64,000 bases of DNA from Candidatus Thorarchaeota archaeon (GTDB taxonomy: Archaea > Asgardarchaeota > Thorarchaeia > Thorarchaeales > Thorarchaeaceae). A model generated the notes under the pieces. It saw nothing but the letters and a program-made list of their open reading frames with translations, made no database searches and was not told the DNA's origin. A program made the position numbers and the translations under genes. Where the stretch lies: NCBI GenBank assembly GCA_011364985.1, contig RDOC01000002.1, positions 1 to 64,000 on the forward strand. Reading direction: 5' to 3'. Shown here piece by piece: positions 9,483 through 52,272 of this stretch. Each line of letters starts with the position of its first letter. Position 1 is the stretch's first letter.

Positions 9483-9522
9483 CGATTATACCATCCTTTG
9501 CAGTTACAAGTTCGCTTTGTTT

Positions 9523-9566
9523 GTGGTTCAGCCTTTTATGGCCACATCCCTGCGGACGGATCCGCC
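9523..9566 (-). promoter_or_regulatory. putative rpl15e 5' leader RNA structure (eL15 r-leader-like)
   Basis: GGCGGAUCCGUCCGCAGGGAUGUGGCCAUAAAAGGCUGAACCAC: hairpins GUCC-GCAG-GGAU and GCC-AUAAAA-GGC, about 40 nt upstream of the start. Confidence 0.55.
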
Positions 9567-36446: not shown

Positions 36447-37352
36447 ATGGTTACCGCTCCTCATCCAGATTTTGTAGAAGCAGGTCGTATTGCGGCCAAA
36501 GTAATCGAGGAAGTAGCTAGAGAAGTTCGTCCGAGAGTCAAGGTTCTACGAATTTGTGCTCTTGCCGAAAGAAGGATACTGGAATATGTTGGGAAAAGAG
36601 GAGGAATTGCTTTTCCATGCAATGTTTCTATCAATGAAGAGGCCGCACATTATACAAGCCCTCGAGGAGATACGAAGATGTTTCCGGAACAGGGTCTTGT
36701 TAAAATCGATATTGGAGCACATGTAAATGGGCATATCTCTGATACAGCGGTGACAGTGGACCTTGATGGAACATTTGAAAAGTTCGTTGCCGCGGCCAAA
36801 TCATCTCTCGATGCAGCTATTGATGTTGTCCGTCCAGGAATACAGGTAGGTGAAGTGGGTGCAGAGATTGAGAAAACTATCAAGAGACACGGTCTCAAGC
36901 CAGTTCATCAGCTATCAGGACACCAGTTAAAACCATGGATATTGCATGCCGGAAAGAACGTTCCCAATGTGAGAATAAGGCGAAGTGCGGAAATGAAAGT
37001 CGGGGAAACTTACGCGATTGAACCTTTTGCGACCAATGGGAATGGTACGATAAGAAGTGGTGAGAATGCCTTCATATTTTCAAACAATATGTCAAACAAG
37101 AAGAAGCTTGATAGACTATCCGTTCAGATTCGAAATCAGACCAGACAACGGTTTGGCACATTGCCTTGGGCATCAAGATGGTTGAGAAGTCAGAAAGTTG
37201 ATACAAATACAATCATTGCGACCTTGGTTAAAGCTGGAGTAGTTAGGGAGTACCCAATTCTATACGAGGGCAGAAATGGCATGGTTTCGCAGTTTGAGCA
37301 TAGCATATTTGTTGGAGAAGATGGAGCCATTGTAACAACTCTTCGCAAGTAG
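36447..37352 (+). CDS. map: methionine aminopeptidase type II
   Basis: AFPCN.S.N..AAHY, KID.G.H.NG...D, LSGH, HAG, AIEPF, QFEH. Confidence 0.93.
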   Translation: MVTAPHPDFVEAGRIAAKVIEEVAREVRPRVKVLRICALAERRILEYVGKRGGIAFPCNVSINEEAAHYTSPRGDTKMFPEQGLVKIDIGAHVNGHISDTAVTVDLDGTFEKFVAAAKSSLDAAIDVVRPGIQVGEVGAEIEKTIKRHGLKPVHQLSGHQLKPWILHAGKNVPNVRIRRSAEMKVGETYAIEPFATNGNGTIRSGENAFIFSNNMSNKKKLDRLSVQIRNQTRQRFGTLPWASRWLRSQKVDTNTIIATLVKAGVVREYPILYEGRNGMVSQFEHSIFVGEDGAIVTTLRK

Positions 37353-37419
37353 TTTCGTCCAGCGTACATAAAACGGCTTAAGAATAGCAAGATGCATTTT
37401 GATGTAAGGGTGCATTCAA

Positions 37420-38316
37420 TTGCTCAAACCACATCCAGACGCCGTCAAGGCTGGAGAAATTGCAGCACGCGTTCTCAAAGAAACAAGAAAAATGGTCGAG
37501 CCTAATACAAAGATTATCCGGCTGTGTGTCCATGCTGAGAAGAGAATCGTTGAATACGGGGGAAAACCAGCATTCCCATTTAATGTATGTATCAACAATA
37601 TTGCCGCGCATCGAACATCGCCAAGAAATGATTCCGAAATCATACCTGAGTTTGGTCTTGTCAAGCTTGATGTTGGAGTACATGTGAATGGCTATATTGC
37701 TGATACTGGACTAACGGTTGATATTGATGGTTCACTAGAGGGGTTTCCGGCAGCAACTGATGACGCTCTTCAAGAAGCGTTTGCCCTGTTCAAGCCTGGT
37801 ATGAGCCTAAGCAAAGTTGGGAAGCAAATTGAGAGGACCATTGGGGCATACGGTCTTAGACCTGTGAAAGACCTCAGTGGACATAGTATTGCAAGATTCA
37901 AGCTGCATGCCGGCAAGAAAGTACCAAACATAGGAATGCGAAACCTTCCAACAATCGAAGCAGGAGAATACTATGCAATTGAGCCCTATGCAACCAGTGG
38001 TTCAGGTAGAGTAGTTGAAACAGATCACATCTTCATCTTCGCAAATAGGGGTAAAGCAGAACCCCTCGAAGGTACAACAGAAAAGCTACGATTATACCTT
38101 AGAGAGAAATATGGATCACTACCTTTTGCCATACGGTGGGTCAAGTCATCAAGTGCAAAAGTGAACTTGGTTGACGAGTTCAGAGAACTCTTGAAAAACA
38201 GAGCAATCAGGCCAATCCCTATGTTGGTGGAAAAGAGTACCAGGCCCGTGAGTATGTCGGAGCATACTATCTTTGTCTCTAAAGACGGGCCTGTGATCTT
38301 GACCAAGGTGAGCTAG
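37420..38316 (+). CDS. map: methionine aminopeptidase type II, tandem paralogue
   Basis: AFP.N...N..AAH, KLD.G.H.NG...D, LSGH, HAG, AIEPY, SEHT. Confidence 0.88.
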   Translation: MLKPHPDAVKAGEIAARVLKETRKMVEPNTKIIRLCVHAEKRIVEYGGKPAFPFNVCINNIAAHRTSPRNDSEIIPEFGLVKLDVGVHVNGYIADTGLTVDIDGSLEGFPAATDDALQEAFALFKPGMSLSKVGKQIERTIGAYGLRPVKDLSGHSIARFKLHAGKKVPNIGMRNLPTIEAGEYYAIEPYATSGSGRVVETDHIFIFANRGKAEPLEGTTEKLRLYLREKYGSLPFAIRWVKSSSAKVNLVDEFRELLKNRAIRPIPMLVEKSTRPVSMSEHTIFVSKDGPVILTKVS

Positions 38317-38683: not shown

Positions 38684-39805
38684 CTAAAGACCAATACCAA
38701 TCGTGTTCCCAATGCCTGCAAGGATTATTTTGTCACCAGGCTTGGTACGCTTCAGTATTGCTGTACGTATTCGCTCAATTACTTCAGGGACGGCATCTAA
38801 GATTTTTTTATCCATGACGCCAACTGCTGCAGCCTCATTTTCCTTGATGACAATAGCCTCGATGCCGATGTTATTCTCGGTTGCAGCCTGTTCCATTGCG
38901 TGCTTCTCTGGTCCAAGATCACCAATTGCTGCACCTGTTCCCTCAGATACCCTTCCGAGCTCTTCGCCCTCAAGTTTCAAGGCAGCATCGACGGTGATAA
39001 TTCGTGCAATTCTGCCTTTGTTTTGCTCTACAAGGGTCTTTACTGCAAGCCCAGGCTTACCAACAGTACCTCCAGGACCAGTTGCACGGAGAGCGTATAC
39101 TGTTCGCCCCTCTACTTCAACCGGATAATAGCCAACTTCGCGAGAGATTTCTGTAATATATGAGTCAGGAGTAGCTCCATACTCTCTTGCGAATCTTGTG
39201 ACCACAAGAGGGCCGATGCCATCACCTATCGGTTTTCCTTCGGAGAAGGCATCAAGCGAATCAAAGTAGGCTTTAGCAAGCAGTAGGATGTCCGGAAGCT
39301 GCATCTGCACTTGCATGATTATGAGTTGGCTGTTTGTCTTCTTGCCGAGAATATAGTAGTGACGCACAATTCGAAATACAAGACTAAGTACTTGGGTCAC
39401 TTCCAAAGTATTTTCCAAGGTCTGTAGCTCGGCTTGTGATGCCTCAGGAGCTAAGTCCGTTACAAACTCTTGAAAACGGTCTCTGCGCTCATCAAGAAGG
39501 TGGTCAAGTCGTTTTAGTATTCCCGCTGGGTCTAGGTCCACAGGCATGATAGTGAAATAGTCAAGCCAGCGGTCTAGCTCCTTGGCGACTTCTTCATCGC
39601 CCTTTCCATACCTCTTGAAGGTTTCAATGGCGGTTTCCCTAGATTCTAGTGCCATCTTCTTGAGCTCAATCAGTCCGGCTTCAATCTGCTTTAGCCATTG
39701 CCATATCTGAAACTTGGCACCATAAAGACTGAAAATGATGATGAATGCGAAGAAAGCCAGATTTATGATCCAGCTGAATTCGCTATCTGCTCCTATTCCC
39801 TGCAT
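38684..39805 (-). CDS. DUF1512-family protein
   Basis: P.DLDP.G, PIGDGIGP, GPGG.VG.PG, VDAALKLEGE, GIGNTIG. Confidence 0.85.
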   Translation of the reverse strand: MQGIGADSEFSWIINLAFFAFIIIFSLYGAKFQIWQWLKQIEAGLIELKKMALESRETAIETFKRYGKGDEEVAKELDRWLDYFTIMPVDLDPAGILKRLDHLLDERRDRFQEFVTDLAPEASQAELQTLENTLEVTQVLSLVFRIVRHYYILGKKTNSQLIIMQVQMQLPDILLLAKAYFDSLDAFSEGKPIGDGIGPLVVTRFAREYGATPDSYITEISREVGYYPVEVEGRTVYALRATGPGGTVGKPGLAVKTLVEQNKGRIARIITVDAALKLEGEELGRVSEGTGAAIGDLGPEKHAMEQAATENNIGIEAIVIKENEAAAVGVMDKKILDAVPEVIERIRTAILKRTKPGDKIILAGIGNTIGIGL

Positions 39806-39893
39806 CTGTATCAGCTCGACAAATTCCGGTTATGCTTTAACCCTTGTCATTTAGACATTCGGTTGTAGGTATATGAAGCTGATATGGAGAAGT

Positions 39894-40044
39894 AGTGGCA
39901 GCTTGCAGACCTGTCACGCGCTCGCGCAGCGAACATCTTCTGCAACGATCCTAGCATACGTCAGCCCGTGGAATGACTCCAGCAGCTTTTAACTTCCGAG
40001 TTCGGAATGGGATCGGGTGTGCCCTAGGACCTATGGCCGCCATC
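39894..40044 (-). rRNA. rrf: 5S rRNA with a 32-nt insertion (39957-39988)
   Basis: UGGCGGCCAUAG..ACCCGAUCCCAUUCCGAACUCGGAAGUUAA[insert]UGCUAGGAUCGUU..GCGAGC..AAGCUGCCA; helix I and helix II pairings intact. Confidence 0.95.
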
Positions 40045-40227
40045 GAAGTAGGAGAGACGCCGTGAGTTTTTAAAGATTACCTTAGGTTCATGAATCTTCT
40101 TTCCACCAATGATGGGAAGTTATGCCTTGATGGGAAAAGACGTTTGCAACCCTTTCGATATCCTCGGATATACTATTCAGTCAAAGCTTTACACGCTTGC
40201 GCTTAACCAAATCATTAGGAGAAGCAA

Positions 40228-43934: not shown

Positions 43935-44070
43935 GGGGCGGTGGCCTAGTCCGGCATGGCGACGGGCTCCAGATCGGGGTTCACTTCGAACCTGAATTGT
44001 GGGGTCAGAACTGGCCGTCGTCGTAGAAGACACTCGTCGATCGTGGGTTCAAATCCCACTCGCCCCACCA
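43935..44070 (+). tRNA. tRNA-Trp(CCA) with 59-nt canonical intron (43973-44031)
   Basis: GGGGCGGUGGCCUAGUCCGGCAUGGCGACGGGCUCCAG|..|ACUCGUCGAUCGUGGGUUCAAAUCCCACUCGCCCCACCA. Confidence 0.93.
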
Positions 44071-52154: not shown

Positions 52155-52272
52155 TGGCGCCGAGGATGAGATTCGAACTCATGCGTGACAAAGCACACTG
52201 GTTGGCTTGGTTTGTTTCCGGAGAAACTGATTTTCAAGACCAGCGCCGTAATCCGGGCTTGGCTACCTCGGC
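52155..52272 (-). tRNA. tRNA-Ser(UGA) with 29-nt canonical intron (52204-52232)
   Basis: GCCGAGGUAGCCAAGCCCGGAUUACGGCGCUGGUCUUGAA|..|AACCAGUGUGCUUUGUCACGCAUGAGUUCGAAUCUCAUCCUCGGCGCCA; long variable arm; CUUG/CAAG splice helix. Confidence 0.93.

Follow-up and report, generated by a model that had tools for sequence, protein, structure and literature searches.

A putative bulge-helix-bulge intron of 32 nucleotides in the 5S ribosomal RNA gene of a Thorarchaeota genome

The closest described counterparts of the element reported here are the introns of less than 50 nt in the 16S rRNA genes of Thermoproteales (Jay & Inskeep 2015, PMC4496867): short hairpins without an open reading frame (ORF), inserted at a conserved rRNA site around a bulge-helix-bulge (BHB) core, patchily distributed, and removed by the route of EndA, the archaeal splicing endonuclease, and RtcB. 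Introns with a relaxed form of the motif (HBh'), gained repeatedly, are known from the tRNA genes of Asgard archaea, where they go together with an (alpha-beta)2 EndA bearing the CSL loop (bioRxiv 10.64898/2026.10.13.758758; PMC5829648); this loop confers cleavage of relaxed motifs and has been reported for Asgard (PMC5829648). EndA also acts on RNAs other than tRNA, as illustrated by the BHB introns of the cbf5 mRNA and of the 5′ untranslated region of Haloferax HVO_1309, but these hosts are mRNAs and 5S rRNA is not among the splicing substrates in that work (PMC7714728); rRNA is likewise unmentioned in bioRxiv 10.64898/2026.10.13.758758. Inserts in prokaryotic 5S rRNA have been surveyed as expansion segments (Stepanov & Fox 2021, PMC7812874). 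The sole archaeal site in that survey is 104.1-105, in Halobacteriales such as Halococcus morrhuae, the surveyed inserts are generally without complementarity to the 5S core, and for the untested ones excision is left open by its authors. Here we describe a 32-nt insert in the 5S rRNA gene of a Candidatus Thorarchaeota archaeon (assembly GCA_011364985.1), which we consider very likely to be a BHB intron spliced by EndA and RtcB. It lies in a window of 64,000 nt, i.e. the whole stretch of DNA analysed (positions 1 to 64,000 of contig RDOC01000002.1).

The gene is the only 5S rRNA gene found in this genome (hereafter G000; other G numbers designate compared genomes and L numbers loci), of which a 1.70-Mb assembly, 74% complete, is available. 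It is a match to Rfam RF00001 with a score of 39.7 bits and is made up as follows:

39893-40044, minus strand: 5S rRNA gene, 152 nt
39989-40044, minus strand: 5′ exon, 56 nt, with the 5′ strands of helices I and II, helix III, loop C and the 3′ end GUUAA (from RF00001 and alignment to 79 Thorarchaeia genes)
39957-39988, minus strand: putative intron, 32 nt, in loop B (absent from 76 relatives)
39893-39956, minus strand: 3′ exon, 64 nt (from the RF00001 match and alignment to relatives)

The insert follows the loop-B GUUAA, at position 56/57 of the Rfam model (about 58/59 in E. coli, by our own numbering). Its length is set independently of any splice motif by the spacing in relatives. Once 39957-39988 is removed, 120 nt are left, with 28 nt between the loop-B AA and the conserved helix IV/V motif, and 28 nt is both the mode and the minimum among the 73 intron-less genes that could be parsed (28 in 57, 29 in 15 and 30 in one). 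An excision of 33 nt would leave a spacing of 27 nt, never seen in these genes, and the only equivalent alternative boundary is a slide of 1 nt. A first-pass annotation of the window had placed an intron here and held that its removal restores canonical 5S spacing; sequence, coordinates and spacing all stood up to re-examination, and the RF00001 match spans the site.

The two ends of the insert, together with the adjoining exon nucleotides, can be drawn as a splice motif composed of the following elements:

39991-39994, minus strand: central helix H, exon strand AGUU
39988-39990, minus strand: 5′ bulge AA^A, with a predicted cut between 39989 and 39988 (placed by the known geometry of EndA)
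39963-39987, minus strand: intron hairpin, with a basal helix h' (39987-39984 with 39966-39963), a 3x3 internal loop, a 4-bp stem and a 5-nt loop
39959-39962, minus strand: central helix H, intron strand GACG, with an outer A·G mismatch (in the minimum free energy structure of the precursor, pair probability ~0.47)
39956-39958, minus strand: 3′ bulge UA^U, with a predicted cut between 39957 and 39956 (likewise by EndA geometry)

The predicted cut sites coincide with the insert boundaries. The motif is a relaxed HBh' and not a strict BHB: the central helix AGUU/GACG has three of four pairs plus the outer A·G, the inner helix has 4 bp (AGCT/GGCT), there is no proper outer helix, and the window gene falls short of the strict hBHBh' form (a 4-bp helix, two 3-nt bulges and helices on both sides). 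Recomputing the geometry returned the same helix and bulges as those drawn in the first-pass annotation. The inner stem given there as AGC/GCT is present but one pair longer, and the label of BHB-type intron holds for the splice-motif geometry at the boundaries, though only in its relaxed form. Forcing the motif in the full precursor costs 0.4 kcal/mol, as compared to 0-2.9 kcal/mol for seven of nine tRNA controls; short excerpts fold without the central helix.

Stronger support than this single motif comes from its recurrence, in relatives and at other 5S sites. A covariance model built from 15 intron-less 5S genes and run on 87 Thorarchaeia genomes gave matches in 82 of them. Of the full-length genes (n = 80), 76 are intron-less and measure 118-122 nt; the other four have an insert at this very position, of 32 nt in G000 and G011 and of 30 nt in G023 and G045; this is the alignment that had been proposed earlier as a check. 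Excision leaves a spacing of 28 nt in the four carriers. All of them keep the AA^A bulge, the inner helix h', GAC plus one base, a 3-nt 3′ bulge and the pairing to the exon GUU. Covariation is seen in h' (C-G to U-A), and the interiors vary both in sequence and in length. The motif of G011 and of G045 is even a strict hBHBh': all four pairs of the helix are present, and the outer helices are 3 and 5 bp long, respectively. No carrier was found to have another full-length 5S besides the intron-bearing gene, and G011, G023 and G045 are 92-95% complete. Between G000 and G011 the exons show compensatory changes in helices I and IV, a sign that the 5S gene is under structural selection. A scan of metagenomes for more same-site inserts brought one contig (JGI), identical to G045 over this region. 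A C/D box guide intron was considered and rejected, since the CUGA present in the four inserts, which is the sequence of box D, is explained by the pairing of h' and H, and no box C (RUGAUGA) was found by eye.

Inserts at other places of the 5S rRNA were found in Thermoproteota, in a sample of 151 genomes defined at phylum level (the phylum of a Nitrososphaeria record). Thirteen of these genomes (L189-L201, G407-G551) have 5S genes of 137-140 nt. In twelve, an insert of 17-20 nt stands at the start of loop C and has the HBh' form; in G551, an 18-nt insert follows the loop-C CCGAA and is flanked by an outer helix. With boundaries set from canonical exon motifs alone, each of the 13 inserts forms a perfect 4-bp helix with its own local exon in the splice register (shuffle p ≤0.007 each, 12 of the 13 being related). 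Inserts that complement their own exon at three unrelated sites are expected under selection for splicing, and not expected of a retained hairpin. Furthermore, the 5S gene is permuted in four Odin-like Asgard genomes (L056-L059; G026, G037, G102 and G109), an example being G026:C1:337637-337850, minus strand. There the 3′ part comes first, and a UUCG loop that closes helix I links it to the 5′ part; the flanks form a 10-bp stem and a BHB, and ligation would rebuild the canonical helix III junction with its AA bulge.

These comparisons bear directly on the alternative that survives best, although we regard it as improbable, namely retention as an expansion segment. In that case the mature 5S rRNA would keep the 32 nt as a hairpin protruding from loop B, and the BHB-like flanks would be coincidental or vestigial. 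The insert folds as a self-contained hairpin, its length falls within the range of known retained 5S segments (13-109 nt) and its site is one position away from 57-58, where such segments exist in bacteria (PMC7812874); Asgard rRNAs are moreover known for expansion segments (PMC7594248). However, in contrast to the surveyed segments, the window insert pairs with the core, and does so in the register of a splice motif: the exon GUU is paired in all four carriers, and the pairing is part of the minimum free energy structure of the precursor. Retention also leaves unexplained the asymmetric flanks (1 nt and 6 nt) and the exon-complementary GAC kept in four genomes, as well as the own-exon complementarity in the same register at two other 5S sites. 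Position 57-58 is described as blocked by uL5 (PMC7812874), and no internal indel distinguishes the uL5 of the carriers from that of an intron-less relative; in the 73 parsed intron-less genes the loop-B spacing varies by 2 nt at most.

The genome also encodes the machinery that splicing would call for. EndA of G000 consists of two subunits, one encoded at C11:364557-365117 and the other, the beta subunit, on C15; its closest named homologue is from Ca. Thorarchaeota (72% identity). The catalytic subunit can be aligned gap-free with the EndA of A. pernix throughout the CSL loop, with a lysine at the position of Lys44. The loop could be read in 49 of 50 Thorarchaeia proteins; G023 gave no pattern match although its protein is 69% identical. 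RtcB is encoded as well (C17:79599-80909), so the host possesses both an EndA of the type acting on relaxed motifs and the ligase. Many tRNA genes of G000 contain introns, mostly of 29-33 nt. When excisions were ranked with a cloverleaf scorer, which leaves ties, the best motif-compatible ones in tRNA-Leu(CAG) and tRNA-Asp(GUC) were HBh' with an identical outer A·G mismatch. Size and relaxed motif are thus shared between the 5S insert and the tRNA introns of the same genome, the difference being that the host is here an rRNA. The spliced-intron reading of the first-pass annotation gains from this and from the same-site inserts.

The enzymes and the tRNA introns also bear on another possibility, that the insert is cut but incompletely religated, or spliced in part only, giving ribosomes with a nicked or mixed 5S as happens with bacterial intervening sequences. 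The motif is indeed weak and relaxed, and an enzyme that lacks the loop makes a single cut in such motifs (PMC5829648). But EndA of G000 has the CSL loop, RtcB is present, and where a tRNA intron shares this flaw, ligation is indispensable for a working tRNA; we hold this outcome to be very improbable. Hardly any credence can be given to a pseudogene or an assembly artefact, with a normal 5S copy hidden in the unassembled part: a genome 74% complete would leave room for it, but three independent assemblies and the JGI contig contain homologous inserts, the exons of G000 and G011 show compensatory changes, the promoter box (see below) is intact, and carriers of 92-95% completeness have no second full-length copy. 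A homing-endonuclease rRNA intron, which would have a LAGLIDADG ORF inside or beside it, was rejected because the 32 nt hold no ORF and the neighbours are DUF1512 and unknowns; a search limited to the single family PF14528 gave matches on other contigs inside long ORFs and none in G000. The insert differs from the Thermoproteales 16S introns not only in its host, 5S rRNA in Asgard, but in having no adjoining homing-endonuclease intron that could explain spread by co-conversion.

If the insert is spliced, the path could be as follows. The 5S gene would be transcribed from its own promoter, and the precursor would fold so that the insert's 3′ end pairs with the exon GUU, replacing helix III and creating the HBh' motif, a step supported by folding and conservation. 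The two-subunit EndA, with its broad-specificity CSL loop, would cut each 3-nt bulge behind its second base, as expected from known geometry. RtcB would then join the exons into a normal 120-nt 5S rRNA and probably circularise the 32-nt intron. The intron has no coding content; most likely it is a passenger that is tolerated and persists because it can be spliced. The flanking elements are:

40067-40074, minus strand: putative archaeal TATA-like box, TTTAAAAA, read from the sequence and ending 23 nt upstream of the 5S start
38684-39805, minus strand: DUF1512 gene (Pfam), a conserved downstream neighbour of the Thorarchaeia 5S locus

A similar TATA-like box is found at the matching place in G011, G023, G009 and G045, and ORFs homologous to the DUF1512 gene adjoin a 5S gene or a 5S 3′ half in G011, G045, G075, G088 and G015.

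The case for splicing is built on sequence and comparison; three metatranscriptome contig sets from the same study contained only loop-C 5S pieces of other organisms, which speaks neither for nor against it. Several points weigh against splicing. The central helix of the window gene has just three pairs, two of them weak, and is not backed by an outer helix. Shuffled inserts reproduce the geometry at these boundaries in 1.5-1.6% of trials (3.5% when the inner hairpin is kept), a modest chance level which makes the evidence of one gene suggestive, not decisive. The four Thorarchaeia inserts probably share one origin and so are not independent trials, and in G023 and G045 the probability of the H pairs is low (0.08), as it is in several tRNA controls. 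The nucleotide following the junction is U here, as compared to G in 72 of the 73 intron-less relatives and U in one. Finally, the intron boundaries of the tRNA controls were chosen among ties with the help of the motif and, for Leu(CAG), also of the paralogous Leu(GAG) sequence.

Should the insert be spliced nevertheless, 5S rRNA would have to be counted with the RNAs dependent on tRNA-splicing enzymes in archaea, and these relatives of eukaryotes could not assemble their ribosomes without the action of EndA and RtcB within 5S. Introns, instead of expansion segments, would then account for the extra length of some oversized archaeal 5S genes, and this would help to explain why such genes score low or are missed (39.7 bits here, for a cut-off of 38). 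The first-pass annotation knew of no described 5S intron; a literature search by titles, abstracts and phrases, with subscription journals mostly outside its coverage, found no paper reporting one. The 152-nt precursor, of which strict and relaxed natural variants exist, lends itself to in vitro assays without culturing the organism.

The distribution of the insert in Thorarchaeia is patchy. In a tree built from two genes only, those of EndA and of the protein next to it, the distribution of carriers requires four changes; G011 falls together with the intron-less G009 and G006 at 100% support, and monophyly is rejected by the approximately unbiased (AU) test for all four carriers (p-AU 0.00025) and for G000 plus G011 (p-AU 1.7e-6). 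Despite this tree, the 5′ domain of G011 is nearest to that of G000 (alignment score 64 of 68, versus at most 54 for any intron-less gene), and the intron-bearing gene of G011 is inverted and displaced, its syntenic place being occupied by an orphan 5S 3′ half and an IS110 transposase. This points to an intron-bearing allele that was passed on laterally. More generally, the patchy presence suggests either lateral movement of an allele composed of the intron and the 5′ domain, or repeated loss or replacement. The arrangement in G011 (L062:2135-4408, on C2) reads as an orphan 3′ half next to DUF1512, the transposase, and then the oppositely oriented intron-bearing gene; a similar inversion of the 5S locus, free of both intron and insertion sequence, occurs in G075 (L065). 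A search for a donor among the tRNA introns of G000 found no sequence donor. A 16-nt match to the insert interior at C6:5306-5332 (E=0.054) and four 13-mer matches in carrier genomes have surroundings that are unrelated and for the most part coding, and were judged to be due to chance.

Many Thorarchaeia contain repeated orphan 3′ halves of 5S, which can be recognised from about position 58-66 onward; G000 has none. An example is L060 (G014:C20:1-14806), with ten such matches in 14.8 kb standing between unrelated genes, one of which encodes a TPR protein, the others that were tested having no Pfam match; further orphan halves are at L061, L062, L065, L066, L068 and L069. In G088, the 5′ part (1-59) and the 3′ part (58-120) of a 5S are on separate contigs (L066 and L067; C189 and C250), and their helix II strands mismatch. 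The orphan halves resemble remnants of attachment sites or an array of cassettes anchored on 5S, although no integrase was identified. One may speculate that 5S is a recombination hotspot just 3′ of the site, with the orphan halves bordering stacked gene cassettes there, and that the intron moves laterally with the 5′ domain as a spliceable allele that blocks cassette integrations, or as their scar; it would then be an ORF-less mobile rRNA intron of a 5S-anchored cassette system, a picture that we find unlikely.

A number of minor observations were made on the tRNA genes of this genome, two of which lie in the window:

43935-44070, plus strand: intron-containing tRNA gene of 136 nt, probably tRNA-Trp or another isotype with two introns
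52155-52272, minus strand: tRNA-Ser(UGA), with a 29-nt intron at 37/38

Elsewhere in G000, ARAGORN appears to mislabel three genes, which read better after excision as another isotype: the Thr(GGU) at C6:5755-5863 as Ile(GAU), the Gly(UCC) at C15:140414-140523 as Val(UAC), and the Lys(CUU) at C17:63846-63949 as Gln(CUG). The same program called a tRNA-Sec (UCA) at C11:352835-352925, minus strand. Its tRNA-Leu call at 37043-37144, plus strand, in the window is inside a peptidase M24 ORF, has no Rfam support and is probably false. Two tandem peptidase M24 (methionine aminopeptidase-like) genes are at 36447-38316, plus strand, and similar ORF pairs adjoin the 5S locus in G045 and G075. The window also holds, at 9520-9565 on the minus strand, a match of 47.8 bits to the Rfam ribosomal protein leader eL15-Euryarchaeota, here in an Asgard genome.
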